From the IMG/VR virus record IMGVR_UViG_2645728048_000034, positions 1 to 62,864 of that record: a stretch of 62,864 nucleotides of DNA, one strand, 5' to 3'. Shown one piece after another: positions 31,484-51,012 of the stretch. Source of the DNA: a virus (taxonomy: Duplodnaviria; Heunggongvirae; Uroviricota; Caudoviricetes). Made by a program: the position numbers and the translations under genes. Numbering within the stretch: position 1 is the first letter of the stretch; every line of letters begins with the position of its first letter. The notes below the pieces were generated by a model. The model did not search any database, was not told the DNA's origin, and worked only from the letters and a program-made list of their open reading frames with translations.

Positions 31484-33461
31484 AACTATTAAAGATTTCC
31501 TCGTCTCGCTTGGCTTCAGTGTGGATGATGCAGGAGCGAAAAAGTTCGGTTCTGTCCTCGCCGGTACAACTGCAAATGTCATCAAAATGGGGCTGGCTGT
31601 TGAAGGAGCTGCGCTGTCCGTGGTGGCCTTCACGGCTAAGATCGCCTCCGGCCTGGATAATCTTTACTGGGCGTCACAGCGCACCGGCGCGACAGTCCAG
31701 GGAATTCAGTCTATTGGCTATGCGGTTTCGCAGGTTGGCGGCAGCGTGGACGCTGCGCGATCTTCTCTGGAAAGCCTCTCCCGGTTTATTCGTAACAATC
31801 CCGGTGCAGAAGGCTTTCTGAATCGCCTGGGCGTACAGACCCGTGATGCCAGCGGTAACATGCGTGACATGGCCGCTATTTTTACGGGCGTTGGACAGAA
31901 ACTCAGCAGCATGCCGTATTACCGGGCTAACCAGTATGCGCAGATGCTGGGCATTGACGAAAATACCCTTATGGCGATGCGCCGGGGTGTGGGTGGCTTC
32001 TCCGGGCAGTACAGCGCAATGGCGAAAGCTATCGGCTTCAATGCTGACGAGGCGGCCAGAAGCTCCAACAAATTTATGACCTCCCTGCGTGAGTTTGGCG
32101 CGATGGCAGGCATGGCCCGTGACAAAATCGGCTCTAATCTTGCGGGGGGGCTTGCGGGTTCGCTGGACACCCTGCGCCGCCATATCCTGGACAACTTCCC
32201 TCGTATCGAGCAGACCCTGACGAAAGCCATAAAAGGCATTCTGGCGCTCGGGGATATTATTGGGCGGCTGTTCTTCAGACTGATTGAGGGGACATCAGGC
32301 CTTATCACCTGGTGGCAATCGCTGGATAAGCAAACGCGGGAGTTGATCTCGCTGTTTGGCGCACTGACGATTGCGCTGCGCATTCTGAACAGTACGTTCT
32401 GGATGTCGCCGATTGGCCTCATTACCGCGCTGGCGGCGGGTATTGCCCTCCTGTGGGAGGACTATCAGACCTGGAAGGAAGGCGGCGACAGCCTGATTGA
32501 CTGGGGCAAGTGGAAACCGGAGGTCGATGCCGCGCTGAAGATGGTTCGTGACCTTAAAACGACCGTTAACGACCTGGTGAAAGCGCTGGCGAAACTGCTC
32601 AATATTGACCCCAAATCATGGTCCCTGAAGTGGGATTTCAGCAACTTCATCGACCAGATGGGCGAATTCAGCAAAATGCTGAACATGATCGCTGACCTGC
32701 TCAACGCTATCAAAGATGGCCGCTGGGCTGATGCCGTCAGCATCGGCAAACAGATACTTAATCAGGGCAGCGAAAATCCGTCAGCGATGCCGATGGTTAC
32801 AGACAGCGCTAACAGTACTGCCGACTGGATTAAAGAGCACTGGGGATTCGATCCCCGCAGTGTGGGCCGGACGGTACGCGGCTGGTTTGGTGATGATGAG
32901 CCGGAACAACATGCACAGGCTACGAAACGAGGAGAACGGAATAACAATCCGGGAAACCTTAATTTTGCTGGTCAGGCAGGGGCTTCTCTTGAACGCCCGG
33001 GCGGGCGATTTGCCAGATTTGAAACTGCCTTTGATGGATTACGGGCTCTTGCTCGTCAGTTAATGCTGTACGCTGGACGGGGAATAAACAGTGTGGAGAA
33101 AATTATCTCTACCTGGGCTCCTGCGTCTGATAATAACAACACAACTGCGTATATCAGGGCTGTATCGCAACGACTGGGAGTGGATTCCCGGGCTGCCCTG
33201 AATATGAGCGATCCGCAAACCATGTCAGCATTGATGAGCAGCATTATCCAGCATGAGAATGGAAGAAATATCTATTCTCGGGAGCTGATTAATAAGGCTG
33301 CCGTGGCGGGAATTAGTGGCAAAGTGACAGAGGTTAACCAGCAAAATACCTACCACATTTACGGTGGCGGAGATCCGCACGCTGTCGGTAATGAGGTTGC
33401 ACGTCGGCAACAGTCTGCAAATGCTCAGGTCATGCGAAGTAATCAGGTGAGGGTGGGTTAG
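31473..33461 (+). CDS. Tail tape measure protein
   Basis: About 660 aa, repetitive Ala/Gly-rich; start at MNAETIKDF with ggagagagg RBS. Confidence 0.8.
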   Translation: MNAETIKDFLVSLGFSVDDAGAKKFGSVLAGTTANVIKMGLAVEGAALSVVAFTAKIASGLDNLYWASQRTGATVQGIQSIGYAVSQVGGSVDAARSSLESLSRFIRNNPGAEGFLNRLGVQTRDASGNMRDMAAIFTGVGQKLSSMPYYRANQYAQMLGIDENTLMAMRRGVGGFSGQYSAMAKAIGFNADEAARSSNKFMTSLREFGAMAGMARDKIGSNLAGGLAGSLDTLRRHILDNFPRIEQTLTKAIKGILALGDIIGRLFFRLIEGTSGLITWWQSLDKQTRELISLFGALTIALRILNSTFWMSPIGLITALAAGIALLWEDYQTWKEGGDSLIDWGKWKPEVDAALKMVRDLKTTVNDLVKALAKLLNIDPKSWSLKWDFSNFIDQMGEFSKMLNMIADLLNAIKDGRWADAVSIGKQILNQGSENPSAMPMVTDSANSTADWIKEHWGFDPRSVGRTVRGWFGDDEPEQHAQATKRGERNNNPGNLNFAGQAGASLERPGGRFARFETAFDGLRALARQLMLYAGRGINSVEKIISTWAPASDNNNTTAYIRAVSQRLGVDSRAALNMSDPQTMSALMSSIIQHENGRNIYSRELINKAAVAGISGKVTEVNQQNTYHIYGGGDPHAVGNEVARRQQSANAQVMRSNQVRVG

Positions 33462-34048: not shown

Positions 34049-34350
34049 TGACAATTCAGGAAATTCCGCTGACAGCGGACAACCAGCAGTTCAGCATCGT
34101 CCTGGGTGGTGTCACCTGGCGGATTAGCATCATATGGCGCGATCTGTACTGGATTATGGACCTGCAGAACGACAGAGGGGAGCCGGTAATCTCCGGTATT
34201 CCTCTCGTCACTGGTGCTGACCTGCTGGCGCAGTACGCCTGTATGGGGCTTGGTTTTAAGCTGGTGGTGGTCTGTGATGACAACACACAGGATTACCCCA
34301 CAAAAACTGACCTGGGCTGTCGCAGCCATTTACTGGTATCAACGGAGTAA
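34048..34350 (+). CDS. Hypothetical baseplate protein
   Basis: 100-aa ORF. Confidence 0.35.
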   Translation: MTIQEIPLTADNQQFSIVLGGVTWRISIIWRDLYWIMDLQNDRGEPVISGIPLVTGADLLAQYACMGLGFKLVVVCDDNTQDYPTKTDLGCRSHLLVSTE

Positions 34351-34352
34351 GC

Positions 34353-35417
34353 ATGTCACAGAACTGGATGAGACATTTCGAGCTGCAGCTTGTGGACGGG
34401 AACGGTCAGGGAATTGAGCTAAGTGATTTTAAAGTCACCTTTACGATCGACTGGTTCAACATCAGCAGCGCGTCCCGGGTAGGGACTATCAAAATTTATA
34501 ACCTCTCGGCAGATACTGTGAACCGAATCACCGGGCAGGAGTTTTCGAAAGTGCGTCTGATTGCCGGTTACGACGGTATCGCGCCGGAGGTGTCGGCAAG
34601 CGACGTCGGGACCGTGCGGGAAGTTGACGCGGCGGACGTGGGTCAGAGTGATGGCCGCAACTACGGACTGATTTTCAGCGGTGAAATTCGCTACTCGGTC
34701 ACAGGAAAAGACAGTCCGGTTGATTCCTACGTCCTGATTCAGGCAGCAGATACTGATCTGGCTTTTGCCACCAGTATAACCTCACAGACGCTGGCTGCCG
34801 GTTACACGGTCGCTGATGTAAACCGTGCGCTGATGAAAGACTTCGAAGCCAAAGGTGCGACCGAAGGCCTGACGCCTGAAATGCCTGCTACTGTATTCCC
34901 CCGGGGGCGGGTACTCTTTGGCATGACGCGGCATCTAATGGATAACGTAGCCGGGCAATGTGGCGCAACATGGCAATTCGTGGACGGTCAGCGCCAGATG
35001 GTGGCGAATAACGAATATGTTCATGAAGCGATTGTGCTCAACAGCGCTACCGGGCTTATTGGCATGCCGCAGCAGACTATCGGTAACGGCGTAAACGTCC
35101 GCGCGCTTATTAATCCGAACATCCGGGTTAACGGACTCATTCAGCTGGATCAGGCTTCCGTGTATCGTACCGCCTTGTCGAACAACGATATTGCGATGGC
35201 TGGTGGTCAGATCACCGACCAGAACACGGATGGAAATATCACGCTAAGCGGCACCACATCGCAGCCTGCCAGCATCGCAACGGATGGCGTTTATATTGTG
35301 CGCGGTATTATGTACACTGGCGACACAAGGGGCCAGGCGTGGTACATGGATATGATGTGCTTTGCTCGAGGTGCTAGTGATATTCCTAGCCAGTCAGCGA
35401 TGAATCGAGGTGCATAA
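34353..35417 (+). CDS. Baseplate hub-like protein
   Basis: 354-aa ORF between tape measure and spike genes. Confidence 0.45.
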   Translation: MSQNWMRHFELQLVDGNGQGIELSDFKVTFTIDWFNISSASRVGTIKIYNLSADTVNRITGQEFSKVRLIAGYDGIAPEVSASDVGTVREVDAADVGQSDGRNYGLIFSGEIRYSVTGKDSPVDSYVLIQAADTDLAFATSITSQTLAAGYTVADVNRALMKDFEAKGATEGLTPEMPATVFPRGRVLFGMTRHLMDNVAGQCGATWQFVDGQRQMVANNEYVHEAIVLNSATGLIGMPQQTIGNGVNVRALINPNIRVNGLIQLDQASVYRTALSNNDIAMAGGQITDQNTDGNITLSGTTSQPASIATDGVYIVRGIMYTGDTRGQAWYMDMMCFARGASDIPSQSAMNRGA

Positions 35418-35419
35418 TA

Positions 35420-36145
35420 GTGAGCAGGCTTGCGATAACCACAATCGTATTTTCTCTTTTTTTAACTTCATGTAGTTGGGATCCTAATGGTGCTAAAGCG
35501 CAGGAAAAATGGCTATCCCAAAAAAATGAAGAAAAACAAGCGTACGATAAGCAAGTTGAGGAGAGCCAGAAAAGCAGGCTTCAAATACAGCGCGAAGAAA
35601 AGTCTCAATTTGAAGTTTCACATCCAGAGGTTATCGTTGCTGGTGTTGGGAACGAGCTTAAAAGTAAGGGTGCAGAATCTTTGCGAGATGCGTACAACAG
35701 CATTCCATTCGTAACTCGTTATCCGGGAACCACGGACCCTAACAAAGTTTATACCTATGTCGGTGACTACAAATTAAATTTGCAACTGGTTAACACATCT
35801 GTGCTTTCTCAGATCTCAGATTGCAAACGCATTTCAGCGTATGCCGATGTTGATATTAATCGTACTTGCTTCAATCAAATTGGAAATGATTTGAGTTTGT
35901 TTGCATCTGTAATTAAAGACAAAAATATTACTGGAATTGCCAAAAAAGCAGCTCTACGAGATTCAACTTACGGAACCAAAATTGATTTTGGTCATGCTGC
36001 GCGTTTAGCAAAAATGCATGCCACTTTATGCCAAAAGCAGGGCGGTAAAGGATTTGTCAAAATGTCGACTGTAGCTGTGCCTTGCGGCTCTTCAGGCGAT
36101 GTAATTAACTATCGAAGCGCCGGTAAGATGGGGCTTATAAACTGA
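35420..36145 (+). CDS. Lipoprotein (moron) within tail module
   Basis: Signal peptide plus lipobox LFLTSC; AT-rich codons; own terminator downstream. Confidence 0.6.
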   Translation: MSRLAITTIVFSLFLTSCSWDPNGAKAQEKWLSQKNEEKQAYDKQVEESQKSRLQIQREEKSQFEVSHPEVIVAGVGNELKSKGAESLRDAYNSIPFVTRYPGTTDPNKVYTYVGDYKLNLQLVNTSVLSQISDCKRISAYADVDINRTCFNQIGNDLSLFASVIKDKNITGIAKKAALRDSTYGTKIDFGHAARLAKMHATLCQKQGGKGFVKMSTVAVPCGSSGDVINYRSAGKMGLIN

Positions 36146-36166
36146 AAAGATCAAATTAGTCACATA

Positions 36167-36193
36167 AAACCCGCCGGATGGCGGGTTTTTTGC
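36167..36193 (+). terminator. Rho-independent terminator after lipoprotein gene
   Basis: acccgcc-ggat-ggcgggt followed by tttttt. Confidence 0.65.
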
Positions 36194-36210
36194 TTTCTGG
36201 AGCCTACTAA

Positions 36211-36963
36211 ATGGCAGTATCTGACCAGACCCGCTGCGGCGACCTTGCCGAAACATTCAAATCTGAACGGGAAACAACAAAGAACCAGATCCGTGTCGCC
36301 TTGCCTGGCATTATTCAGTCATTCGATCCTGATGCGGTTACGGCAGTTGTGCAGCCTGCTATACGTTCGGTTGAAAAGGATAATGACGGCAACCGCATTA
36401 CCCAAAATTACCCATTGCTGGTGGATGTGCCAGTGGTATTCCCGCGCGGAGGAGGCTGTACGTTGACTTTTCCGGTAAAAGCCAGGGATGAGTGTCTTGT
36501 CGTTTTTGCCGATCGTTGTATTGATTTCTGGTGGCAGAACGGCGGGATACAGGAGCCTGTTGATGACAGAATGCATGATTTATCGGATGCGTTTTGTATT
36601 GTCGGTCCCCAGTCGCAGGCGAGGAAGATTAGCGGTATTAATACCAGTGCCACACAGTTGCGTAGTGACGACGGCAGCACCTATTTTGAGCTTAATCCTG
36701 ACACCAGGAAAATTAAAATTGTCGCTCCGGGTGGTCTTGATGTGGTTGCCCCTCTGGCTGATTTTTCTGAGAAAGTAACCATTCATGGCCTGTTAACCTG
36801 GATGGGTGGCATGGTGGGGTCTGTTGTTTCTGGTGTGGCTTCAAAAATCACTGGTGCTGTTGAGTTCTTGGGGAGCGTTAAGGCTAACGGCAAGTCAATC
36901 GATGATACGCACACTCATGGCGGTGTTCAGCGCGGTGGAAGCAATACCGATGGGGTAAACTGA
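36211..36963 (+). CDS. Baseplate spike/assembly protein V-like
   Basis: 250 aa; position before W-like and J-like genes. Confidence 0.5.
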   Translation: MAVSDQTRCGDLAETFKSERETTKNQIRVALPGIIQSFDPDAVTAVVQPAIRSVEKDNDGNRITQNYPLLVDVPVVFPRGGGCTLTFPVKARDECLVVFADRCIDFWWQNGGIQEPVDDRMHDLSDAFCIVGPQSQARKISGINTSATQLRSDDGSTYFELNPDTRKIKIVAPGGLDVVAPLADFSEKVTIHGLLTWMGGMVGSVVSGVASKITGAVEFLGSVKANGKSIDDTHTHGGVQRGGSNTDGVN

Positions 36964-37316
36964 TGCGATACAGACGTGAAGACGCCGATGGCGATTACAC
37001 CTTTGGCAGCGGTGATGACACCTGGCTGATTAACTCACCGGAGGCCGTGGCGCAGGCGGTAAAAACGCGATTCGAATTGTGGTATGGGCAATGGTTTCTC
37101 GACACCACCGAAGGGACTCCGTGGATCCAGTCCGTGCTCGGAAAGCAGAAGCCGGAAACCTACAACCTGGCGATCCGTAAGCGCATCCTCGAAACGCGGG
37201 GCGTTAAATCAATCCTCTCTTTCAATACGACAGTGGATACCACGACCCGACGTGTCATGTTTTCCGCTGAAATCGACACTCTTTATGGAATAACGACTGT
37301 TACATCGGAGGCGTAA
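36963..37316 (+). CDS. Baseplate protein W/gp25-like
   Basis: 117 aa; ATGA overlap with previous gene. Confidence 0.55.
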   Translation: MRYRREDADGDYTFGSGDDTWLINSPEAVAQAVKTRFELWYGQWFLDTTEGTPWIQSVLGKQKPETYNLAIRKRILETRGVKSILSFNTTVDTTTRRVMFSAEIDTLYGITTVTSEA

Positions 37317-38515
37317 TGGCTCTGAACCTTGATTCTCTCGGTTTATCTGCAAAGGTAACCGCGGAGGGGATCAGTGCGCCTGATTATCAGACGATACTCA
37401 GCACCCTGATTAGCTATTTTCAGCAGATTTATGGCAGTGATGCCTACCTCGAACCGGACAGCAAAGACGGCCAGATGGTGGCTCTGATGGCGCTGGCGAT
37501 TCATGATGCCAATAATATGGCGATAACTGTCTACAACTGTTTTTCACCGGCAACCGGCTATGGGGCTGCACTGACCAGTAACGTGAAAATAAATGGTATT
37601 TCACGTAAAGGCGCGACGAACTCTACGGTTGATTTGCTTCTTGCAGGAACTGCCGGAACAACCATCATTAATGGCAGCGTGAAAGACAGTAATAATGTGA
37701 TATGGCGTTTGCCTGCTTCAGTAGTGGTCGGCGTGGATGGTACAGTGATGGCGACCGCAACATGTTCCGTCAGTGGTGCAGTGGCGGCGCTGGCTGGAAC
37801 TATCACTGAAATTAATACGCCAACCCGTGGCTGGGTTTCGGTAACTAATCCTGCTGCGGCTACTGTGGGCACTCCGGCAGAAACTGACGCGGAGTTACGT
37901 ATCCGTCAGTCGCAAAGTGTTGCGTTGCCATCAATAACCCCATTTGAAGCACTGGATGGTGCTGTTTCTAATGTTACCGGTGTAACCCGCCACAAACTCT
38001 ATGAAAACGATACTGGTTCGGAGGACGGTAACGGGTTACCGCCACACTCTGTTGCTGTAATTGTGGATGGCGGTGATGTGACGGATATTGCTCAGGCTAT
38101 CAGAGGGAATAAAGGCCAGGGGACAGCCACTCACGGTACAACATCCGTTACGGTTCCGGATAAATACGGCAATCCCCATGTAATCAAATTCTCGCGTTCC
38201 AGTGATGTGCCTGTTTATGCCCGGATTAAATTAAAAGTTTTTACGGGTTATACCTCACAGATAGGGCAGCAGATCCAGCAGGCTATTTCCGACTATATCA
38301 ATAGTCTGATGATTGGTGATTCGGTCCTTTTAAGTCGCATTTACTCACCGGCGAATCTTGGCGTGGTGAGTGGCGGGAATGCACGCTATTACGATATTCA
38401 GGAACTGACGATTGGGAAATCCCCGGGGGCTTTGTCGTCATCAAACATTGATATCAGATACAACGAATCTGCGTCCTGTACCCCGGAAAATATCGTTATA
38501 ACGGTGGAGTCATGA
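37316..38515 (+). CDS. Baseplate J-like protein
   Basis: 399 aa; position and size. Confidence 0.65.
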   Translation: MALNLDSLGLSAKVTAEGISAPDYQTILSTLISYFQQIYGSDAYLEPDSKDGQMVALMALAIHDANNMAITVYNCFSPATGYGAALTSNVKINGISRKGATNSTVDLLLAGTAGTTIINGSVKDSNNVIWRLPASVVVGVDGTVMATATCSVSGAVAALAGTITEINTPTRGWVSVTNPAAATVGTPAETDAELRIRQSQSVALPSITPFEALDGAVSNVTGVTRHKLYENDTGSEDGNGLPPHSVAVIVDGGDVTDIAQAIRGNKGQGTATHGTTSVTVPDKYGNPHVIKFSRSSDVPVYARIKLKVFTGYTSQIGQQIQQAISDYINSLMIGDSVLLSRIYSPANLGVVSGGNARYYDIQELTIGKSPGALSSSNIDIRYNESASCTPENIVITVES

Positions 38516-40067: not shown

Positions 40068-40669
40068 TGTATAATGCCATCTTGAATAGTAAATTTATTG
40101 CCACAAAGGCAGGAGAGATTACCGTTTATAACTATGACAGTGAGACACGGGAGTATATTTCTGCATCAACTGAATATCTTGCTGTGGGTGTCGGTATCCC
40201 TGCATATTCCTGTTTAGATGCTCCTGGCACACATAAGGCGGGTTATGCAATCTGCCGTTCGGCAGATTTAAACTCATGGGAATATGTGTCAGACCATCGC
40301 GGTGAAATCATCTATAGCACCGAAACAGGAGAATCGAAAGAAATCACAGCTCCGGGTGATTATCCTGAAAATACAACCACTATCGCCCCGTTAACGCCAT
40401 ACGATGAATGGGATGGTGAGAAATGGGTAACAGATACTGTGGCACAGCATAGCGCCGCAGTAGGCGCGGCAGAAGCACAGCGTCAGTCACTGATTGATAC
40501 TGCAATGGCTTCCATTAGTCTGATTCAGCTGAAATTGCAGGCCGGACGGAATCTGACGCAGGCAGAAACCGCCCGACTTAACGCTGCGCTGGATTACATT
40601 GACGCGGTGACGGCAACAGATACGAGCACCGCGCCGGATGTCATCTGGCCTGAACTGCCGGAGGCGTAG
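40064..40669 (+). CDS. Tail fibre assembly protein (Tfa)
   Basis: 201 aa; conserved Tfa C-terminus [24 protein letters not shown]. Confidence 0.65.
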
Positions 40670-41075
40670 GCCATTCAATATCTGGAGCACTGGAGGTATC
40701 AACCAGTTCCAGTGCGTCCAGATAATCCAGCCACAAATTATATTGCGCCAGTTCCTCACCTTTCAGACGACCAATAGCCGCTTTACCAGGCCATTGCTTG
40801 GTATTCATATATTCGTTGGACTGATTAATCAATTGCTGTTTTTTCAATTCGGCTGCGGCAATCTGTTCCTCATGCGTTGGTGGTGGAATTTCAGACCATG
40901 CAGGAAAACCATTTTCCCCAGCGATACGGATTTTTCCTTTCGGCGGTAATCCGGAAAACTCAATATACACCTGCTCATCAACTTCAACAGCATCATCTGG
41001 CCATGAATTTACATTGATGTAGTCATCCTTAAGCGCAGGATTCACAAAAATATTTAAAGATGGACTAAAAAACAC
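40641..41075 (-). CDS. G: P2 G-like tail fibre assembly protein
   Basis: Tfa C-terminus [21 protein letters not shown]; follows H; 3' end overlaps the + strand tfa by 29 nt. Confidence 0.7.
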   Translation of the reverse strand: MFFSPSLNIFVNPALKDDYINVNSWPDDAVEVDEQVYIEFSGLPPKGKIRIAGENGFPAWSEIPPPTHEEQIAAAELKKQQLINQSNEYMNTKQWPGKAAIGRLKGEELAQYNLWLDYLDALELVDTSSAPDIEWPTPPAVQAR

Positions 41076-41076
41076 A

Positions 41077-42252
41077 TCACCCTCCTATAGCAACATAACA
41101 GCCCGATACAGGATTTGCGGCAGTCACTACGCTGGAAAAACCACGAAAGCCGCTTTTTGTGATTGCGGAAGCAGATAGTATTCCGGCACCCGAAGGTGTA
41201 TGCCCCACGTGGCTGGCAACCATCACGTAGCACGCCGACGGAAAAGCGAAAGGGAAATTGTTTAAATATCCCGCATCATCCCCCAGACTTCCCCCAAACT
41301 GCCCCACTCCCCACTGGATAATAAGTGGTCTCCGAACGCCAGAAATAATTAATGGAATTGCTACATACCCATTCACCAACATAGCGCCGGTTGTTGCGCC
41401 AGCCAGAGCCAATTCCCCCAAACCAAGGTATGCGAGAAGACCGGCAACATCCTTTCCACTCAAATGAGTCAGCGTCTCATCCAGTGGCTGCTTACCTGAC
41501 AGCGCATTGTTAATGGTGGTGCTGAATTTCGGGTCATTGTTAATGGCCGCGGCAATTTCTTTCAGTGTGTCCAGTGTGGCTGGCGCACCGTTAATCAGAG
41601 CGGTAATAGCGGCCTGAACAAACGCAGTGGTCGCAATCCGCGTGGTGTTATTTCCTGCGGCAGGCGTCGGCGCTTTTGGTTCTCCGGTAAATGTCGGATT
41701 ATGTTTCTGCGCATACTGGGTATGAGGATCCTGTGCGGCAATGTGGTTCCTCATCTGGTCATCCACATACAGCTTTAATTCCAGGACTTCATCATCCACG
41801 TATTTACGGGTCGCCAGTACCACCGACGGGTCGATTTTCAGCGTGATGGCTTCGGTATTCGTGACAACCAGAATCATGCGGATAGTCTGGGTACGACCAC
41901 TGCCTTCCTGCAACTGCGGTTTGTACGTTTCCGGGCAGTTCGCCACCGCAATGAGTACGCCTTCATCATCATAAAGCCCAATCTCACGGATCCAGAATCC
42001 GCCCTCGTTCTCAGGGATGATTTGCTCCGCAATAATCTGGCTCTGGTTGTTCGGGTCAACACTCAGAAGATTCAGCGGCGCGATGCGTTTCTGGTTAATC
42101 AGTTTTGTCTGTGCCGGGTCTGGGGTCGGCAAGACACCATTCGCATCACCAACGGCCATTTGCGTCAGATTCAGCTTACTGCCGAGCATCGTCGCGTTAG
42201 CCAGCCGTGCTGCGCCCTGATTAGTCAGAATGGCGTAGTATTTCACTGTCAT
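41077..42252 (-). CDS. H: P2 H-like tail fibre protein
   Basis: Conserved N-terminus MTVKYYAILTNQGAARLANA...MAVGDANG; shorter than P2 H. Confidence 0.7.
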   Translation of the reverse strand: MTVKYYAILTNQGAARLANATMLGSKLNLTQMAVGDANGVLPTPDPAQTKLINQKRIAPLNLLSVDPNNQSQIIAEQIIPENEGGFWIREIGLYDDEGVLIAVANCPETYKPQLQEGSGRTQTIRMILVVTNTEAITLKIDPSVVLATRKYVDDEVLELKLYVDDQMRNHIAAQDPHTQYAQKHNPTFTGEPKAPTPAAGNNTTRIATTAFVQAAITALINGAPATLDTLKEIAAAINNDPKFSTTINNALSGKQPLDETLTHLSGKDVAGLLAYLGLGELALAGATTGAMLVNGYVAIPLIISGVRRPLIIQWGVGQFGGSLGDDAGYLNNFPFAFPSACYVMVASHVGHTPSGAGILSASAITKSGFRGFSSVVTAANPVSGCYVAIGG

Positions 42253-42860
42253 GCGTTTACTCTCAGGTTATCAATTAAATGAATGGCCGAGGCCGGGAAA
42301 TAATCCCCTCCGACAATAATGGCCTCCGGGGTGTAGGGATAAACCGTCATGGCGTCGCCGTGATAGCATCCCGCACCGGCAAAAATGTTGCCGGTTGTAC
42401 TTAAGCTGATAGCCAGTCCCGTCAGATGGCGGCTTGCCGGTTTTGCATCAGCAACGAGGCGCTCCAGCTCCTGATACATTTCCTCGGTAATACCCTGCTC
42501 AAGCACGCCAACAACGATGCGGAACGTCCCCGGCTCCTCGTTGAGCTGCCACCACTCCCTCACCTCAATCAGATAGCCGAGCGGCTCCACCACACGCCGG
42601 ATTGCGCCTATAGTGCCCTTATGGCAGTGAATGAAATACGCATCGCGGATAACAGCGCGTTTTGTCGCTTCCGGCCACTTATCATCCCAGCGGTCAACCG
42701 AAAATGACCACGCCAGCCACGGCAGCAGATTTGCCGGGCAGGTGTCCGGGTTCCACAGCTCACGAATACTGACCGGCGTTTTTTCAATTTCCGCACAGGC
42801 TTTTGCGGCAGCGACTTCAAGCGGTGATGAGCCGGTCGGCAGCAGTCGCGAATCACTCAT
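42249..42860 (-). CDS. I: P2 I-like baseplate protein
   Basis: N-terminus MSDSRLLPTGSSPLEVAAAKA; P2 gene order. Confidence 0.75.
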   Translation of the reverse strand: MSDSRLLPTGSSPLEVAAAKACAEIEKTPVSIRELWNPDTCPANLLPWLAWSFSVDRWDDKWPEATKRAVIRDAYFIHCHKGTIGAIRRVVEPLGYLIEVREWWQLNEEPGTFRIVVGVLEQGITEEMYQELERLVADAKPASRHLTGLAISLSTTGNIFAGAGCYHGDAMTVYPYTPEAIIVGGDYFPASAIHLIDNLRVNA

Positions 42861-43761
42861 CCGAGCCTCCGGTCACGACGCTGTATTCGGTACAGAAAGA
42901 CGCCTGAGTATTGTTGAGCACGATGTCGGCCAGCGGTGCAGCCAGTTCGACACGCTGCACGCCTTCCACATGCAAAGCGGCATAAATGGCAGACAGTCGG
43001 ATGTCGCGCCCCAGCCGGTGCTGTGCCGTGATATACGCTTCCAGTTTTTTCACGGCGGCAGCGCGAATGGGTTCGCTTTCGGGGCCAGGATAAAGGTAAA
43101 GCGTGGCATTTATCTGGTATTCAACGATGACGGCAGACTGCACGGTCACACGGTCGGCCACCGGTCTGACGTCCTCACCATTAAGGGCGTTGCGCACCAC
43201 CGCCAGCAGGTCTTCGGATGCCACACCGTTATTTTCACGTGACAGCACAGAGATGGTGACGCAGGCCGGAGACGGACTGGTGACAGAAATATCCGCGACA
43301 CGCCCGTCGGCACTGCGACCATGATACTGATAGGCTCCCACCGACCCGGCGACGCTTAAGCCCTCAAACGCCTGCTGAATACGCAGACGATAATCGGTGT
43401 CAGACTCCATCACTGCCGGTGTCGGCGGGATGGTCGAATCATCTGCCGGGGTGATAATCAGGCGCGTGGTGTTGTAATTGGCACCAATCACATCAAGGTC
43501 ATTACCGGCGGCACAGGCCAGCATTACCGCCCGTGCGGCCTCATTCACACGCTGACGCCAGATAAGCTCACGATAAGCATTTTCCTCCAGCAGTTTGACG
43601 AGAGGCTCGGATTCCAGCGTCAGGGTACGGGCAACCGCCTCCTGCTGGTCTTCCGGGTAAAGGGAAATCAGTGTCGCCTTGCGTTCGGCAAGAATGGTTT
43701 CAAAGTCCAGCTCCTCGACCACATCCGGTGCGGGTAGCTGGTTCAGGTCGATAATCGGCAT
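42853..43761 (-). CDS. J: P2 J-like baseplate protein
   Basis: 302 aa, same as P2 J. Confidence 0.8.
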   Translation of the reverse strand: MPIIDLNQLPAPDVVEELDFETILAERKATLISLYPEDQQEAVARTLTLESEPLVKLLEENAYRELIWRQRVNEAARAVMLACAAGNDLDVIGANYNTTRLIITPADDSTIPPTPAVMESDTDYRLRIQQAFEGLSVAGSVGAYQYHGRSADGRVADISVTSPSPACVTISVLSRENNGVASEDLLAVVRNALNGEDVRPVADRVTVQSAVIVEYQINATLYLYPGPESEPIRAAAVKKLEAYITAQHRLGRDIRLSAIYAALHVEGVQRVELAAPLADIVLNNTQASFCTEYSVVTGGSDE

Positions 43762-43765
43762 GGTT

Positions 43766-44113
43766 TCAACTCACAGGGATGGTTAACGAAAGTGGCTGGC
43801 CGGTGTCGTTGTGCTGGCCGGTTAACGTGACCGTCATTCGCCCGTCAAAACTGCGCTCAGTGGTGACGGATGACAGGGTGACGCGGGGTTCCCATTTCAG
43901 CACCGCCATGTAACAGGCGACCTTAATCTGCAACTCAAGCGCCGGGGTCTGCGGCTGGTCAATCATTGACGCCAGCAATGAGCCGTAATCACGACGCATC
44001 ACCCGTGAGCCGACCGGCGTGCGCAGGATATCGCCGATACTCTGGCTGATATGCTCAAGGTCAGTGACAGTCAGGCCATCACTGCGATTCATTCCAAGAT
44101 AACGCACTGTCAT
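43766..44113 (-). CDS. W: P2 W-like baseplate protein (gp25-like)
   Basis: 115 aa, same as P2 W. Confidence 0.8.
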   Translation of the reverse strand: MTVRYLGMNRSDGLTVTDLEHISQSIGDILRTPVGSRVMRRDYGSLLASMIDQPQTPALELQIKVACYMAVLKWEPRVTLSSVTTERSFDGRMTVTLTGQHNDTGQPLSLTIPVS

Positions 44114-44745
44114 AGAGGACTCCCGGTTGTGCCGCCGCTGTCGCCGGGGTGTTTATGGGTATGCAGTACCTTACCGTTTGATGAGAGTTCACCGCCGGTA
44201 TGTTTAATGTTGCCGCGCATCGTCCCGCCCTTCTGCACTTCCAGCGTGCCGGTAATCAGTCTGTTGGTGCAGACCACCTCCGGGGTGTCCAGGGTGATGC
44301 GGGTTGACGCTTTCACCATGACCACCGGCACCGTGGCAGTAACAGAATCAGAAGCCGTCACGCTGGCCGTTTTAATTCCGCTTACCGTGAGTGCACTGGT
44401 TTCGGGTTCATACTCAATCACCGCCCCGTCAGGGAAACGGATATGCAGGGCATCCGCCGACGTAGACGGCGCGGGGTTATCGCCGGAATAAATCCCCGGC
44501 AGAACGAACGCCGTGTCGAGTTCACCGCCCACGGCCAGAATCAGCACCTGTTCCCCCACGGAAGGTGCCCACCATGTGCGCGAACGTCCGGCGCGATGGG
44601 TCAGCCACTGAAGCCAGTCGGTGCACATGCCGCCGGTCTGCACACGGCAGCGACCGGCGTTAAGGTCGGTTTCGACGATAATGCCGGTGCGGATCATGTT
44701 GCGCAGTGCGCGCGCGAGTTCCTGAATATTTGCGAGAGTGTTCAT
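44110..44745 (-). CDS. V: P2 V-like baseplate spike
   Basis: 211 aa, same as P2 V. Confidence 0.8.
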   Translation of the reverse strand: MNTLANIQELARALRNMIRTGIIVETDLNAGRCRVQTGGMCTDWLQWLTHRAGRSRTWWAPSVGEQVLILAVGGELDTAFVLPGIYSGDNPAPSTSADALHIRFPDGAVIEYEPETSALTVSGIKTASVTASDSVTATVPVVMVKASTRITLDTPEVVCTNRLITGTLEVQKGGTMRGNIKHTGGELSSNGKVLHTHKHPGDSGGTTGSPL

Positions 44746-44811
44746 AACGGGAAGGATGCCGCCGGGTCATACCGGCGGCAATGTGCCGATGAGGTGTCGG
44801 GAATGGCACAA

Positions 44812-45264
44812 CTAACGGTCGAGGTGAGCCAGGATAATCTCTTCAATCATCTGCACATCCTCACCGGTAAAGCCGAGCAGAGGACGCGCCGGATAATCAA
44901 TTTTCTTACCGTCTTTCCGGTTTTCTTCCGACAGACCGAACTGATGCACACTGGCGATTTTCGGCGACTTCCCGCCGTAAAACTCCATTGATGCCTGCTC
45001 CGGGCTGGCGCGGATATGCAAAAAACGACTGGTGATAAGTTTCGCAAACATTTTTCGCTTAACGCGACCGGTCTTTTTTCTGGCGCTCTGCTGCTGGCGT
45101 GGTGCGTAGGGTGTGCCGTCCGGGGCTTTCTGTGCCATCACCCGGCGCTGCTGACTCTGACGCAGACGTTTCGCCAGTTCGGCGCTCAGTCGCCGACGCC
45201 CTGACGGTGACAGCGACTCAATCAGTCCGGTCAGCCGGTCTTCAAAACGCTTAAACTCATTCAT
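44812..45264 (-). CDS. S: P2 S-like tail completion protein
   Basis: 150 aa, same as P2 S. Confidence 0.75.
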   Translation of the reverse strand: MNEFKRFEDRLTGLIESLSPSGRRRLSAELAKRLRQSQQRRVMAQKAPDGTPYAPRQQQSARKKTGRVKRKMFAKLITSRFLHIRASPEQASMEFYGGKSPKIASVHQFGLSEENRKDGKKIDYPARPLLGFTGEDVQMIEEIILAHLDR

Positions 45265-45724
45265 CCCACTTGCTCACCAGTTCACCATTGATATAAAGCT
45301 CCATCGGGCGGGTGACCGGCTCCGGCGGCGGGGGTTCCGGGATATTCTTCACATGCAGCGCGCCATCCACCTCACTGACCAGCGTGCGCTCGGTCAGCAT
45401 CAGGCTGATGCTGATATCAAAGCTGCTGTCATTGTTGATGTCCGCATAAAACGTGAAGCCCTTTTTCTGGCCTTCGTCGGTGGTCATGATGTCGGGCTGA
45501 TTTTCCCGCAGCCACGCCAGCACCGGCACGATGAGCAGGTCAAAATCACCGGTAAAGTCGGTCACAATCACATTGAGCGTGTAACGCTTTTCGAATGACA
45601 GCGACGTCGCCAGCGTGGAGGCAATACTCCCGTTATCCACGAATATCCGCAACATATCGGGGTTAGTTTTCAGCACCGTGACGGCATCAGTCAGCGCCCT
45701 GCGCAGGCTGTCGGGTTTGAGCAT
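45257..45724 (-). CDS. R: P2 R-like tail completion protein
   Basis: 155 aa, same as P2 R. Confidence 0.75.
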   Translation of the reverse strand: MLKPDSLRRALTDAVTVLKTNPDMLRIFVDNGSIASTLATSLSFEKRYTLNVIVTDFTGDFDLLIVPVLAWLRENQPDIMTTDEGQKKGFTFYADINNDSSFDISISLMLTERTLVSEVDGALHVKNIPEPPPPEPVTRPMELYINGELVSKWDE

Positions 45725-45977
45725 CGTTTTCGTCCTGACAGTGTTTAATCATTTTTACCTGGCTGGCACAGCGTGCCAGCGCGTTCTCAAGCTGCCGGAT
45801 ATCGGCACTTAAATCGCCGTTCGTCTGCGGGTCACTGCCCGGCATCGGGCAAAGGCTCACTTTCGGGCAGGCGTTGGCGACAATCACTGGCGTCAGTGCA
45901 GGCGGGGCGCTGGTGCAACCGGCGCACAGCATCAGGCAGGCCAGCGCCGTACCAGCGGCGAAAATCTTCGTTTTCAT
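45687..45977 (-). CDS. lysC: P2 LysC-like o-spanin lipoprotein
   Basis: 96 aa from internal Met; lipobox LCAGCTS; overlaps lysB in +1 frame. Confidence 0.55.
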   Translation of the reverse strand: MKTKIFAAGTALACLMLCAGCTSAPPALTPVIVANACPKVSLCPMPGSDPQTNGDLSADIRQLENALARCASQVKMIKHCQDENDAQTRQPAQGAD

Positions 45978-46257
45978 TAAGTAACCTCGTGATGGTTTTC
46001 TCGCGCTGTGCTTCACGCTTCGCGGCGTTCTCCAGTTCCTGACGCAGTGCCACCTGCGCCAGCTCGTTTTTGTCTGCCCTGGTGATGGCAACATGAAGCT
46101 GATTTTGCAGCATGGTGATGGTCGTCTGCTGCCCGCTGGCGACGTTGTTCGCCCTGTCCAGCGAGGCGCGCAGGCTGGCGTTTTCATGCTTCACCAGAAA
46201 CAGCCCCGCCACCGCCAGCGATAACAGCACAACCATCACAATCATCAGCTTTGACAT
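45832..46257 (-). CDS. lysB: P2 LysB-like i-spanin
   Basis: 141 aa with N-terminal TM helix. Confidence 0.65.
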   Translation of the reverse strand: MSKLMIVMVVLLSLAVAGLFLVKHENASLRASLDRANNVASGQQTTITMLQNQLHVAITRADKNELAQVALRQELENAAKREAQREKTITRLLNENEDFRRWYGAGLPDAVRRLHQRPACTDASDCRQRLPESEPLPDAGQ

Positions 46258-46670
46258 GGTTCCCGCCCCTCAAAACGCTGACGGCAGGCCGTACGTATCA
46301 GCCGGAAGAACACCGACGCCACGAGATAAATCAGCGCGGTAAAAATCCACCCGGCAGCGACCAGCGAGATAAACGTCGCCACCATCACCACCAGAGCCAC
46401 CGCCCGTCTGCGCCACGGCACCGGCTGCAAAAACAGCGACGTGACAATCTTCACGGCCAGCGATTCCGGCGGAAGCTCCCGCCCGTAGCGTTCCAGCACA
46501 TACTCAGTGGCATACACGCCGACACCACCGGCAACCACACAGATAACCGTCGCCAGAATCGCCCAGGCGGCGACAAAACTGACGGCCACGCTCTGCGGGT
46601 AAATCAGGGACAGTGCCAGCATCAGCGCCAGCGACACGTTCAGCATCAGTGAAAGGGATAATTTCTTCAT
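46245..46670 (-). CDS. lysA: P2 LysA-like membrane protein
   Basis: 141 aa, multi-TM. Confidence 0.6.
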   Translation of the reverse strand: MKKLSLSLMLNVSLALMLALSLIYPQSVAVSFVAAWAILATVICVVAGGVGVYATEYVLERYGRELPPESLAVKIVTSLFLQPVPWRRRAVALVVMVATFISLVAAGWIFTALIYLVASVFFRLIRTACRQRFEGREPCQS

Positions 46671-46684
46671 GGTGTTTACTCCGT

Positions 46685-47182
46685 TTAAGCCGGTACGCCG
46701 CCAGCGGTACGCCAGACGGTGACCAGTTTTTCCAGTGAATGCTCACGCTGACCGTAACCGGCACCCGGCAGGGACGCCCAGATATTGCGACAGCGTGAAA
46801 TGGCTCGCTCAATGCGTCCCGCCCGGATGTCATCCAGTGCACCGCGTTCGCGGATCAACTGAATGGCAAGTCTGTCCTGTGACAACGGACTGAAATCCGG
46901 CAGGGCAAGCTGTTTGCGGTAATGCGGCCAGAACAGGTAAAGCTGCTGATAGCGACCGGAGGCCGTGGATTTTTCACCGCGACGGTTAAACACCTTCGCC
47001 GGTCGGCCATGTGCGAACGGGTGGTCACTGTAGTCGGTGAAAATTTCCGGCTTCCCGTCCAGTCCGGTGACTATCACGTCATAGCCCCGGTTTTTCGTCA
47101 GCGGATGATTTGCCGTCCCTTCGGACACGGCCAGCATGTCGAGAAAGGCGGCGATATTCTGATGCGTGTTAATTACCGGCAT
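46685..47182 (-). CDS. K: P2 K-like endolysin (lambda R-type lysozyme)
   Basis: 165 aa; GYDVIV...TDYSDHP...SGRYQ motifs. Confidence 0.85.
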   Translation of the reverse strand: MPVINTHQNIAAFLDMLAVSEGTANHPLTKNRGYDVIVTGLDGKPEIFTDYSDHPFAHGRPAKVFNRRGEKSTASGRYQQLYLFWPHYRKQLALPDFSPLSQDRLAIQLIRERGALDDIRAGRIERAISRCRNIWASLPGAGYGQREHSLEKLVTVWRTAGGVPA

Positions 47183-47463
47183 TACTGTTTCCCCCTGCCC
47201 TTAAAGCGGCGCTGAATGGCAATCTCAATCACCTGATAACCGGCGATACCCAGCATGGAGCCAATGCCGCACACCGCAGGCAGTGACAGGTCAGGAAACT
47301 GCACCAGAACAACACCGGCAACCATCGAGACAAAACCACCGAGCAACATGCGCCCGATAAACAGACGTGGGGTGATGGGTTCACCACCGGCAAGCACCTT
47401 GCCGACAACAATCAGCACCCCAATCATGAAAAGCGACAGGACGCTTTTTTCTTCTGCTGTCAT
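47182..47463 (-). CDS. Y: P2 Y-like holin
   Basis: 93 aa, TM helices. Confidence 0.7.
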   Translation of the reverse strand: MTAEEKSVLSLFMIGVLIVVGKVLAGGEPITPRLFIGRMLLGGFVSMVAGVVLVQFPDLSLPAVCGIGSMLGIAGYQVIEIAIQRRFKGRGKQ

Positions 47464-47466
47464 GCG

Positions 47467-47670
47467 TTACTCCCACAGATTGACAGTTTCAGCCACGGGC
47501 GCGGTCTGAACGTCGGGCAGTTCGACGGCGGTGCCGTGTGGCAGCACCGCACCCAGTTCAGCCAGTCCCGGATTTGCGGCGAGCACGGTCTCAACCACGC
47601 CCTCAGTGCGCCCGTAATACCGGACACAAATGGCGTCGAGCGTGTCGCCCTGTAGCGCAAAGGTCTTCAT
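47467..47670 (-). CDS. X: P2 X-like tail protein
   Basis: 67 aa from internal Met MKTFALQGDTLDAI. Confidence 0.6.
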   Translation of the reverse strand: MKTFALQGDTLDAICVRYYGRTEGVVETVLAANPGLAELGAVLPHGTAVELPDVQTAPVAETVNLWE

Positions 47671-48179
47671 CAGATTTGACTCACGATGCAGCGCGGCTTG
47701 TCCTGGATACGCGCCACCGCCCAGCGCATATCCCGCCACAGCTCATCAATGGTGCTGTCAATGCTGTCGGCCTTCTTGTCGCCTTTCGCACTGGCATCCA
47801 CGCCGCGGTAACGCTCATAAAGCGACGCGGTCGCCATCGCACACACGGCGCGCTCGTAGTAAAAAACTTTGATGCTTTCACCGTCGATGTCGTCCGCCGG
47901 AACGTCCGCCAGACGCGTAAAACCGGCGGCAATTTTCTGTTCGCGGTACTCGTACAGCTCCGCATTCGTCTCCGCCATGCCTGACTTGATGGCCTCACGC
48001 AGACGGGCGGGGGCGACGGTCTGCTCAAGGCGCATACGTTCCCGGACGCGCTTCGGGTCGATATCGGGAAAAAAGAACGTGTTTTTAATCACCGGCTCGT
48101 CGCCTGCCGGTTGCGGGATGACCACCGTACCCTCACCGGACACGGGAGCCTCCTTTCGCGGAATAATCAGCGTCATCAT
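47670..48179 (-). CDS. L: P2 L-like head completion protein
   Basis: 169 aa from internal Met, same as P2 L. Confidence 0.7.
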   Translation of the reverse strand: MMTLIIPRKEAPVSGEGTVVIPQPAGDEPVIKNTFFFPDIDPKRVRERMRLEQTVAPARLREAIKSGMAETNAELYEYREQKIAAGFTRLADVPADDIDGESIKVFYYERAVCAMATASLYERYRGVDASAKGDKKADSIDSTIDELWRDMRWAVARIQDKPRCIVSQI

Positions 48180-48278
48180 GACTACCTCTGAAAAGTCGGG
48201 CGGTGGACGCCGGTACAGCGTCAGGTGATTCACCCTCCCTGACCGGCGTGCCGCCCTGGCGCGGGGCGCATTCGGTTG

Positions 48279-49022
48279 TTAACTGGCTTTCTTTTTCGGG
48301 CGTCCACGTTTTGCCGGTGTCACGCTCCGGGTCTTACGCGGGGTACGGGTGGCCGCTTTGGGCTGCGGCTCCGGCTTCGGTTTCAGCTCCCGCTCCAGTC
48401 GTTCAATCTCTTTTTTGACACCTGCCTGACAGTCGAGCTGTGTCGCACGTTGCAGGTGAGCCAGCGCACCGGCGGCATCACCACCATCACGCAGAAACAG
48501 ACCGGTGATTTTGTGCAGCTTTGCGCGCACTTCATCAGGCATGTCAGCCGTGGCGGTCAGTTCAAGGGTCTCCGTCAGCAGGCGGGTATCCACAGACTCA
48601 CCGGCAGCGTGAGCACGCATGGCCGCGAGCGCCACCTCCTCGGTGAACATGTACGGCGGGGTGCGGCGGTGTTTACCCGGCATGGTCAGACCGTACTTCA
48701 GGGCATAACGGGCAATCTCCAGCGCACCGGCAATATCGCCGGTATCCAGACGCCACAGCATGACCGTCATCAGAATGTCATCCTGTGCACCTTTGCCCTG
48801 CTCCAGCACGCCGTTCACCCACGGCAACCAGAACGGCAGCAGTTCGCGTTTTTTCGCGGCCTTCAGCTCTTTTGAATAAATCGCTTTCAGTGTGCGCTGG
48901 TCTGCGGCGAGCTTAACCAGCATCTGCTCATAGACAGTTGCATGTCGCAGCGGGGCGGCTTCCCGCTGCGCGGTCATCGCTGCCGAGACCCGCATCATGT
49001 GGCGCTGTGCGGGACTCGTCAT
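48279..49022 (-). CDS. M: P2 M-like terminase small (endonuclease) subunit
   Basis: 247 aa, same as P2 M. Confidence 0.8.
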   Translation of the reverse strand: MTSPAQRHMMRVSAAMTAQREAAPLRHATVYEQMLVKLAADQRTLKAIYSKELKAAKKRELLPFWLPWVNGVLEQGKGAQDDILMTVMLWRLDTGDIAGALEIARYALKYGLTMPGKHRRTPPYMFTEEVALAAMRAHAAGESVDTRLLTETLELTATADMPDEVRAKLHKITGLFLRDGGDAAGALAHLQRATQLDCQAGVKKEIERLERELKPKPEPQPKAATRTPRKTRSVTPAKRGRPKKKAS

Positions 49023-49025
49023 CGG

Positions 49026-50099: not shown

Positions 50100-50157
50100 A
50101 GTTTTTCCTGAAATTAAGGGTTAATCGTGAAGGTTTTCCCGGACTGACTGACACCGG

Positions 50158-51012
50158 TCAGCAGTTCGTCATCAGGGCGTCACCGCCACCGCCGGTGGCT
50201 TTACTGCGGCGCTGCTGGGTCAGACTTTCGGTGTGGTCGAGACTGTTTTTCAGGCGGGTGAATGCCTGACTGGTTTCATCCGCCCTGTCAGTCACATCCT
50301 GCTTAAGTGCGGAAAAGGCGGTTTCCATCTCAGCAAGGCGCTGCTCAGTGGCGCTCAGTTTTTCCTGCACATGCTCAGCGACAGCGGTCACCGCTTCATG
50401 CACGTCATTCAGACGGGCGTCATCGCTGGCCTGTTTGCGGCCAAAAATGGATTTCACCTTTTCGGTCAGGGCTGTGAACACGGTTTCAGGCAGGTCTTCA
50501 AATTCCAGCTCAACAGGCGTTGCCACTGAAATCAGGTTTTCAGGGCTTAATTTGAAGCGGTTCAGGGGGTTGTGTTTTGCCGTGCGGCAGAATTCCAGGT
50601 ATTCCGTGCCGAGGCTTGCCGGGTCATCGGTGACGGCCAGACCCACCAGATAACATTTGCCGGTATTGGCAAAGTTCGGCTGAATTTCCATTGAGGTATA
50701 GACCTTCTGCGCGGCCTTGTTCATCGCGATAAGGTCATCGGTCGGGGTGATTTTCGCAAACAGCGCCCATTTGCCTTTCAGCGCCGAATCATCGTCAATC
50801 TTTTCGGCCTTCAGTTCGGCCACATCGCCATAACGCTTAAAAATACCGTCAGGCAGGATGCCGCGCAGATGTTCCAGGTTAATGCGGCAACCATAGACTC
50901 GCGGGTCAAAGGTTTCGGCCATTTCCTGAATATCCTGCGCACTGATGACACGCCCGTCACAGGTGTCACCCTCAACGCCGATACGAAAGAATTTTGAGAC
51001 TTTTTTTGCCAT
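50158..51012 (-). CDS. O: P2 O-like capsid scaffold protein
   Basis: 284 aa from internal Met MAKKVSKFFRIGVEGD. Confidence 0.8.
   Translation of the reverse strand: MAKKVSKFFRIGVEGDTCDGRVISAQDIQEMAETFDPRVYGCRINLEHLRGILPDGIFKRYGDVAELKAEKIDDDSALKGKWALFAKITPTDDLIAMNKAAQKVYTSMEIQPNFANTGKCYLVGLAVTDDPASLGTEYLEFCRTAKHNPLNRFKLSPENLISVATPVELEFEDLPETVFTALTEKVKSIFGRKQASDDARLNDVHEAVTAVAEHVQEKLSATEQRLAEMETAFSALKQDVTDRADETSQAFTRLKNSLDHTESLTQQRRSKATGGGGDALMTNC

Follow-up and report, generated by a model that had tools for sequence, protein, structure and literature searches.

A predicted outer-membrane lipoprotein in an accessory slot between the baseplate hub and spike genes of SEN34-like prophages: a candidate for envelope-level interference with phage entry

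Envelope proteins encoded in the tail modules of phages (Llp, Cor, HK97 gp15) are among the few known means by which the entry of other phages is controlled without touching their DNA, and only few families of such proteins are known. Llp of phage T5 is a lytic-conversion lipoprotein that blocks FhuA and whose gene lies next to that of the receptor-binding protein. Cor of phages phi80, N15 and HK022 is the product of an accessory exclusion gene in the tail region of temperate lambdoid phages and acts at the outer membrane (PMC3594210). HK97 gp15, the first moron to be described, is encoded within the tail operon, where its gene lies between the chaperone and tape-measure genes, and blocks DNA entry in a manner dependent on the incoming tail (PMC3594210). 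Morons characteristically are extra DNA of deviating GC content that has a promoter and a terminator of its own and is expressed while the prophage is repressed (Juhala et al., 2000, summarised in PMC3594210). Here we describe a lipoprotein gene that lies between the baseplate hub gene and the spike gene in a stretch of 62,864 nucleotides of viral DNA (Caudoviricetes; IMG/VR record IMGVR_UViG_2645728048_000034), which is called the window in the following. The host element is a prophage of the lambdoid type that has a myovirus tail and resembles Salmonella phage SEN34 (genus Brunovirus), itself described as lambdoid with Myoviridae morphology (PMC5261728). The gene fills the first position of an accessory slot, and our tentative reading, to which as a whole we give a probability of about 0.4, is that it codes for a late-made outer-membrane lipoprotein of this slot that would interfere with phage entry at the level of the envelope.

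The window lipoprotein has something in common with each of the three described systems. Like Llp, which is not part of the virion, it is a phage lipoprotein of the outer-membrane type encoded in the neighbourhood of host-recognition and tail-tip genes, and as for Llp both superinfection exclusion and protection of the progeny from debris would be plausible roles. Like Cor, it is specified by an accessory gene in the tail region of a lambdoid phage and is predicted to act at the outer membrane; unlike Cor, it is encoded in the hub-spike slot by a gene coupled to that of the hub, and neither Pfam, PHROG nor tblastn searches gave a match to Cor. Like HK97 gp15, it is an accessory envelope protein from the tail operon of a lambdoid phage. 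HK97 gp15 is, however, a small inner-membrane protein whose gene has its own promoter and terminator, whereas the window gene codes for a lipoprotein of the outer-membrane type, has no detected promoter and is followed by a terminator common to all alleles of the slot.

The open reading frame is a real and constrained gene, since homologs of its product, in 15 clusters formed at 90% identity, share an invariant lipobox cysteine and since its dN/dS is 0.11–0.13 (versus alleles of 85% and 78% protein identity). The GC content of the frame is 0.39–0.41 as compared to 0.50–0.57 in both flanks, and that of the slot is 0.41 as compared to 0.54 in the final 600 nucleotides of the hub gene. The GTG start codon at 35420 follows the TAA stop codon of the hub gene (35415–35417) after 2 nucleotides, without intergenic space, and a consensus scan found no sigma-70-like promoter site on the plus strand upstream of the gene, although a site inside the hub reading frame could escape such a scan. 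Because the gene is thus coupled to the hub stop, without intergenic space and without a detected promoter-like site, its architecture looks like that of a late-operon gene. A scan of 33–38 kb against Rfam gave no match. The tail genes around the lipoprotein gene are likewise tightly packed, with neighbours overlapping or abutting at 33461 (tape-measure protein (TMP)/Dit), 34048 (Dit/plug), 34350/34353 (plug/hub), 36963 (spike/initiator) and 37316 (initiator/J). A sequence-only reading of the window had already noted an AT-rich frame of 241 amino acids with a lipoprotein signal amid tightly packed tail genes, between a hub-like and a V-like spike gene, and had seen no similarity to Cor or Llp. 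All of this stands: the GC content is 0.41, the signal peptide has a basic n-region, a hydrophobic core and the lipobox LTSC with its invariant Cys18, the neighbours are identified by phrog_196 and by PF18352 plus a GpV Apex motif, and Pfam, PHROG and tblastn searches gave no relationship to Cor or Llp.

The junction between hub and spike is variable in related prophages. When positions 34300–37400 were compared by megablast with 5426 complete Escherichia coli genomes, the flanks were found in 355 of them (~6.5%), with hub genes 95–98% identical at the DNA level across the slot alleles. Only 12 of these 355 genomes, from isolates of human, bovine and companion-animal sources, contain the lipoprotein insert, and a search with the lipoprotein gene alone retrieved the same number plus two diverged partial matches; the other flank-sharing genomes hold different DNA at this place. 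One natural lysogen with the allele is E. coli NCTC9022 (NZ_LR134237), whose copy of the gene is 99.2% identical. A spread sample of 45 matches covering both flanks fell into 12 size classes, which means that there are at least 12 in E. coli. We have read 15 slot alleles without the lipoprotein, from E. coli, SEN34, Yersinia phage YP3 and Klebsiella phage Mulock (related slot loci are L002–L005, L011–L018, L022, L023 and L054). Each of the 15 has a GC content between 0.37 and 0.45, as compared to about 0.55 in the hub gene, and in each the first position is taken by a gene for an exported protein that is coupled to the hub stop. In 13 of them this is F1, a signal-peptide protein of 110–117 amino acids (phrog_3443) with a QCG motif and two cysteines, which some RefSeq records call the STY1065/STY2022 family. 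The other two have F2, a signal-peptide protein of 153–154 amino acids that shares the C-terminal domain of F3, the family of the window lipoprotein (hhalign probability 97.4%, E 1.6e-11; BLASTP E 1e-11 to a distant F3 relative). A relationship of F1 to F3 was ruled out (hhalign probability 0.3%). It should be noted that F1 of SEN34 (SEN34_20) is annotated with 77 amino acids; the reading frame in fact starts at a TTG 1 nucleotide past the hub stop and includes a signal peptide, and the annotated start is mis-called.

The slot is therefore laid out as hub stop, exported protein (F1, F2 or F3), zero to two further cassette genes, conserved terminator and spike. Since most relatives carry the unrelated F1 at the first position, the lipoprotein is replaceable or dispensable. 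This bears on the view that the protein is a component of the virion or of tail assembly in its natural place within the baseplate operon, for which the location among baseplate genes and the conserved synteny could be quoted. We regard this as extremely unlikely: 343 of the 355 near-identical E. coli prophages lack F3, in place of which they have F1, which is unrelated, or F2, which is shorter; F1 and not F3 is also what is found in each of four isolated phages (SEN34, YP3, Mulock and vB_EcoM-689R2); and a lipoprotein signal with an invariant cysteine directs the product out of the cytoplasm, where tails are assembled. What the lipoprotein brings to light is a conserved accessory slot within the baseplate operon of a prophage family that is common in enterobacteria. 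In the searchable literature we found no account of the hub-spike slot, of STY1065/STY2022 or of SEN34 proteomics.

The slot is closed by an intrinsic terminator, the hairpin AAAACCCGCC-GGAT-GGCGGGTTTT at 36166–36189 with a T-run to 36191. It is the top terminator-like site in the 13.5 kb that were scanned (29–42.5 kb), with a folding energy of −18.2 kcal/mol (z = −3.85) that was reached by none of 200 shuffled sequences. The E. coli alleles all end with ACCCGCC-loop-GGCGGGTTTTTTGCTTTCTGGAGCC...ATG(spike), irrespective of the cargo in front, and their loops are hypervariable (GGAT, ACTT, ACCC, TTCG, ACCA and others). A GC-rich hairpin with a T-run is present 18–29 nucleotides ahead of the next structural ATG in 32 of 32 related loci, distant phages included, with compensatory variants of the stem (CCCGCC/GGCGGG, CCCACC/GGTGGG, CCTCGCC/GGCGAGG, GGTCGC/GCGGCC, GCCGC/GCGGC). 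Because the same element follows non-homologous cargo in every allele, it belongs to the conserved architecture of the slot and not to the lipoprotein gene. The sequence-only reading was thus right in seeing a strong terminator behind the gene, but not in regarding it as the gene's own. Its term moron stands in part: the gene is extra DNA (present in 12 of 355 genomes) of deviating GC content (0.41 versus 0.54), yet the terminator is that of the slot, and since the start codon is only 2 nucleotides past the hub stop and no promoter was detected, we do not consider the gene a canonical moron.

Between the T-run and the ribosome-binding site of the spike gene (GGAG, 36199–36202) there is no room for a promoter, and the spike and the downstream baseplate genes therefore need read-through of the terminator. 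This would be supplied by the Q-like antiterminator: Q-antiterminated transcripts would pass the element, and transcription that arises within the slot without antitermination would stop there, so that the terminator would insulate the baseplate genes from it. The terminator (36165–36190) is also preceded by an A-run and fits, with one mismatch, the hairpin-plus-T pattern on the minus strand; judged by this pattern it may work in both directions.

Downstream of the first position the slots differ in their cassettes. These comprise a protein that is weakly HEPN-like together with either of two partners (241–257 amino acids), a protein with three transmembrane segments (3-TM; weak PycTM match) together with a small acidic protein, a 190-amino-acid protein together with an annotated YafO-family toxin, and further cargo such as DUF4282 and DUF2335 proteins and others. 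They combine freely with F1, F2 or F3; in locus L010, for example, F3 is followed by the 3-TM pair. As far as can be judged from their sequences these cassettes are candidate defence or toxin systems. Promoter-like sites between the first and the second slot gene were seen in three of four other alleles, at counts not above those of shuffled controls. In 2022 Rousset et al. reportedly described accessory and defence hotspots in P2 and P4 prophages. The slot resembles these in having conserved flanks and many alternative cassettes of low GC content, several of them defence- or toxin-like, and differs from them in lying inside a baseplate operon, in always opening with a hub-coupled exported protein and in closing with a terminator before the ribosome-binding site of the spike gene. 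With its fixed, recognisable boundaries and at least 12 alternative cassettes, it offers a compact collection of candidate genes for exclusion and defence that lends itself to experiment. Several alleles have gaps of 440–770 nucleotides in their RefSeq annotation (L014:2306–2760, L018:2318–2770, L015:1481–2240). The intact reading frames within these gaps have annotated homologs in other genomes, namely the cassette genes for the HEPN-like, the 3-TM and the small acidic protein.

The F3 family itself is small and keeps its place. A profile search of 1.84 billion protein representatives gave 36 relatives at E ≤ 1e-3, and in 33 of the 34 loci that were mapped the gene lies between hub and spike. 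Relatives of 36–48% identity hold this junction in prophages of Limnobaculum and Serratia, in IMG/VR contigs and in metagenomic contigs. The exception is a distant long form of 341 amino acids with an extra N-terminal domain, which sits one junction upstream, between plug and hub in a cluster of the same type, and is likewise followed by a hairpin with a T-run. To judge from the sequences, the lipoprotein is not a sporadic, one-off acquisition, as the family keeps its junction across genera down to 36% identity. In each comparison it is the most diverged gene of the cluster, with 42–48% identity as compared to 50–77% for TMP, Dit, plug, hub, spike, initiator, J and wedge. A fixed place combined with the fastest divergence is what would be expected of an interaction or arms-race protein. 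The lipoprotein has no match in Pfam, NCBIfam or PADLOC, and its sole PHROG match, phrog_3727 (function unknown), is marginal and restricted to the N-terminus (E 0.0048).

These findings also bear on a further alternative, namely that the protein is a lysogenic-conversion factor unrelated to phages, which as an outer-membrane lipoprotein alters the host envelope and thereby, for example, serum resistance, adhesion or stress tolerance. Lambda Bor is the precedent for a phage-encoded outer-membrane lipoprotein (PMC3594210), and the lipoprotein type, the deviating GC content and the human, bovine and companion-animal sources of the isolates would be in line with such a role. We nevertheless consider it unlikely. 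The gene is rare (12–14 of 5426 E. coli genomes), its product has no Pfam match and hence none to Bor/Iss, TraT or Lom/Ail, and no promoter for expression in the lysogen was found. Moreover, conversion genes are usually scattered, whereas this family is confined to one junction of one type of tail cluster, and this strict linkage to a tail junction would be left unexplained.

Sorting to the envelope is indicated by the N-terminus, in which a basic n-region and an h-region of 11 residues (mean Kyte-Doolittle hydropathy 2.36) precede the lipobox. Cys18 is invariant in 15 close homologs. Among 23 further, distant representatives that were read, the lipobox is present in 18; of the others, two are fragmentary and three deviate from the canonical residue in front of the cysteine. 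All full-length distant relatives have an N-terminal signal peptide that ends in a cysteine, which is canonical in most. The pattern [LVI][ASTVI][GAS]C was matched in 17 of 19 non-redundant loci, and in the other two LNGC was recognised by eye. According to the Lol rule of E. coli, a lipoprotein without aspartate at position +2 lacks the Lol-avoidance signal and is sorted to the outer membrane. Residue +2 is serine in the window protein and serine, glycine or alanine in 18 of the 19 loci; it is aspartate in none, and the lone phenylalanine was traced to a doubtful start call. Since residue +2 is not aspartate, the lipoprotein is predicted to be sorted to the outer membrane.

In the mature protein a charged helix is predicted for residues 22–67 (9 acidic, 9 basic and 8 glutamine residues), which would be about 6.9 nm long if fully helical. 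The AlphaFold2 (AF2) model of the full-length protein has a predicted local distance difference test score (pLDDT) of 86, and that of the globular domain alone (residues 68–241) has a pLDDT of 94.1 with a predicted template modelling score of 0.88. There are four conserved cysteines (135, 150, 204 and 222), which fits with disulfides formed in the periplasm. Only two columns, C135 and C150, are invariant when 34 diverse relatives are aligned, which would fit a domain that binds better than one that is enzymatic. A C-terminal transmembrane segment is absent from the protein. Two spanin identities were rejected, that of a u-spanin because the protein is a lipoprotein without such a segment, and that of an o-spanin because the prophage has its own Rz/Rz1 pair at 19451–20006, with the gene of the 241-residue lipoprotein 15 kb away. 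RefSeq (NZ_CM136170, NZ_AP042480; protein WP_029399670.1) labels the protein "HMG-box domain-containing protein". This identity, too, was rejected: no Pfam family matches the full protein at E ≤ 0.01, and when 34 members of the family were scanned at E ≤ 10, no HMG-box family was among the 25 listed of the 38 families matched. The label probably derives from the charged helix.

Structure comparison revealed no convincing fold match for the domain. The sole neighbour with a notable score is BFVD H9C1A6, a viral protein of 324 amino acids (Foldseek E 2.7e-3, probability 1.00, 172 aligned columns), which might come from an isolated phage and be one of the long-form relatives. Spackle of phage T4 acts on the lysozyme gp5, and TsiV3 acts on the spike VgrG3 of the type VI secretion system. 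By analogy, exclusion could come about by an anti-puncture immunity in the periplasm, in which the globular domain binds and neutralises a peptidoglycan hydrolase or another tip component of incoming contractile tails. None of the 34 family members matches PF07007 (LprI), however, and only one matches T4_Spackle (PF25676, E 0.031), so that we judge this sub-mechanism to be distinctly improbable. Unlike T4 Spackle, TsiV3 and LprI/DUF1311, to which it has no profile-level match and fold scores at noise level, the window lipoprotein has a predicted lipid anchor and a long stalk.

The same idea can be extended to the slot as a whole. The hub-spike slot of SEN34-like phages would then be a dedicated periplasmic-immunity locus whose obligatory first gene, for F1 or for a member of the F2/F3 domain family, would disarm the penetration machinery of incoming contractile tails in the periplasm. 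Targets could be, for example, the lysin domain of the tape measure or the tip of the spike; the products would be secreted or tethered to the outer membrane, the stalk of F3 would act as a spacer to position the inhibitor level with the peptidoglycan layer, and phages would have in this locus a counterpart of T4 Spackle and of type VI secretion immunity proteins like TsiV3. This extension we hold to be decidedly unlikely as well.

We return to the reading that we prefer, envelope-level exclusion by a late-made lipoprotein. In this proposal the product would be exported via Sec, lipid-modified and directed to the outer membrane, in whose inner leaflet it would be anchored and from which the charged helical stalk of about 7 nm would hold a disulfide-stabilised, non-enzymatic binding domain in the periplasm. 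Filling the first position of the conserved accessory slot of SEN34-like (Brunovirus-like) lambdoid myophages, it would be made with the late tail operon, which is the most likely mode of expression given the coupling of the gene to that of the hub and the lack of a detectable promoter. Its job would be to mask a receptor or to block the tail tip in the periplasm, with the effect that superinfecting phages are excluded and/or that progeny are not wasted on the debris of lysed cells, as with T5 Llp, Cor and HK97 gp15. For exclusion we count the linkage to the tail module, the fastest divergence, the dispensability, the presence of a Q-like antiterminator and the defence-like character of the other slot cargo (weak HEPN matches, the annotated YafO-family toxin, the 3-TM protein with its weak PycTM match). 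A function in superinfection exclusion or host interaction appears the most plausible, and it is probably at the level of the cell envelope that the lipoprotein would counter the entry of phages.

The points against the proposal weigh heavily. Exclusion is a functional proposal drawn from sequence and context, and searches of Pfam, NCBIfam, PADLOC, PHROGs and, by tblastn, deposited phages brought up no known exclusion protein that resembles the lipoprotein. Indeed, the 50,697 deposited phage records gave no tblastn match to the lipoprotein at all, also when two long-form relatives were used as queries. Expression in the lysogen, which classic superinfection exclusion needs, is unsupported because no promoter was detected. 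Furthermore, the presence of F3 does not co-vary with the C-terminal lysin type of the phage's own TMP or with the C-terminal type of its spike, and since it tracks neither, no partner is indicated. Finally, the fact that the first position is always filled could point instead to a routine function in the lytic cycle.

The last point raises the question of why the gene after the hub always codes for an exported protein. One answer would be that F1, F2 and F3 are interchangeable accessories that act on the envelope during the lytic cycle in a way other than exclusion, for example by modulating the disruption of the outer membrane or the timing of lysis. The translational coupling to a late structural gene and the export of the first product in every locus examined agree with this. 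A lytic accessory of this kind is, however, in our view very unlikely in a phage that already has holin, endolysin, Rz and Rz1, and for a protein that lacks a C-terminal transmembrane segment and is encoded far from the lysis cassette. The features of the lipoprotein gene, of the slot and of the surrounding prophage are collected in Table 1.

Table 1. Features of the lipoprotein gene, the hub-spike slot and the surrounding prophage. Coordinates are those of the window unless preceded by a locus name.
Feature	Position	Strand	Remarks
Lipoprotein reading frame	35420–36145	+	GTG start, 241 amino acids, N-terminus MSRLAITTIVFSLFLTSC; read from sequence
Shine-Dalgarno sequence GAGG of lipoprotein gene	35407–35410	+	Within hub coding sequence; read from sequence
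Signal peptide and lipobox LTSC	35420–35473	+	n-region MSR, h-region LAITTIVFSLF; Cys18 codon 35471–35473
Charged single-helix stalk, residues 22–67	35483–35620	+	AF2 helix, pLDDT 87–94
Globular alpha/beta periplasmic domain (predicted), residues 68–241, and stop codon	35621–36145	+	Domain-only AF2 model
Slot-closing intrinsic terminator	36166–36193	+	10-bp stem, GGAT loop, T-run; conserved right slot boundary
F1 genes (examples)	L003:1621–1968; L005:1618–1953; L022:about 2625–2965; L054:4078–4416		Position 1 of slot
Baseplate hub gene	34353–35417	+	phrog_196 at 6.8e-88, PF22759 (weak); stop is conserved left slot boundary
Spike gene	36211–36963	+	PF18352 at 6.8e-43 and GpV Apex motif
Sheath-initiator/wedge gene, 117 amino acids	36963–37316		phrog_120 baseplate wedge subunit; homologs with precomputed PF10934 Sheath_initiator matches
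TMP C-terminal endolysin-like domain, residues about 470–669	32859–33461		PDB 7q47 at E 6e-13; 9vvp Gp29 at 7.7e-21
Q-type late antiterminator candidate	16626–17300	+	PF06576 DUF1133 at 5e-108, PF06530 Phage_antitermQ at 5.8e-06
Holin	18628–18987		Beside prophage spanin pair
Spanin pair	19451–20006	+	Rz-like 19451–19843 (PF10828 weak); Rz1/LysC-like 19662–20006 (PF23793 LysC 3.5e-18)

Two of the neighbouring tail genes vary in their C-terminal parts. In relatives the TMP can carry, in the same position, a second type of C-terminal domain that is 20–33% identical, and its middle part is mosaic. The C-terminal third of the spike protein likewise occurs in two types, 30–48% identical, among otherwise near-identical prophages and independently of the slot allele. 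The 117-amino-acid gene after the spike, which is followed by the gene for baseplate J, has no Pfam match, and its RefSeq label "thioredoxin domain-containing protein" is unsupported by the scans. For annotation this means that the RefSeq labels "HMG-box" and "thioredoxin" in this cluster are both unsupported, that the start of SEN34_20 is wrong and that several reading frames of the slot are missing from RefSeq.

The gene set of the prophage comprises integrase, RecT/RecE, a CI-like repressor, the Q-type antiterminator candidate, holin, endolysin, Rz and Rz1/LysC. In the window it is adjoined by a P2-like late-gene block at 40641–53992 (minus strand, with P and Q on the plus strand) and 54364–56847, which contains genes for tail-fibre assembly, fibre, I, J, W, V, capsid, terminase and portal. 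At the border two tail-fibre-assembly genes converge and overlap at 40641–40669. The P2 sheath-to-D genes are not found beyond G, where the gene order of P2 would put them; the SEN34-like prophage is there instead. The P2-like block also contains a gene for an 827-amino-acid ResIII/DEAD helicase-like protein, at the place that old/tin has on the P2 map.

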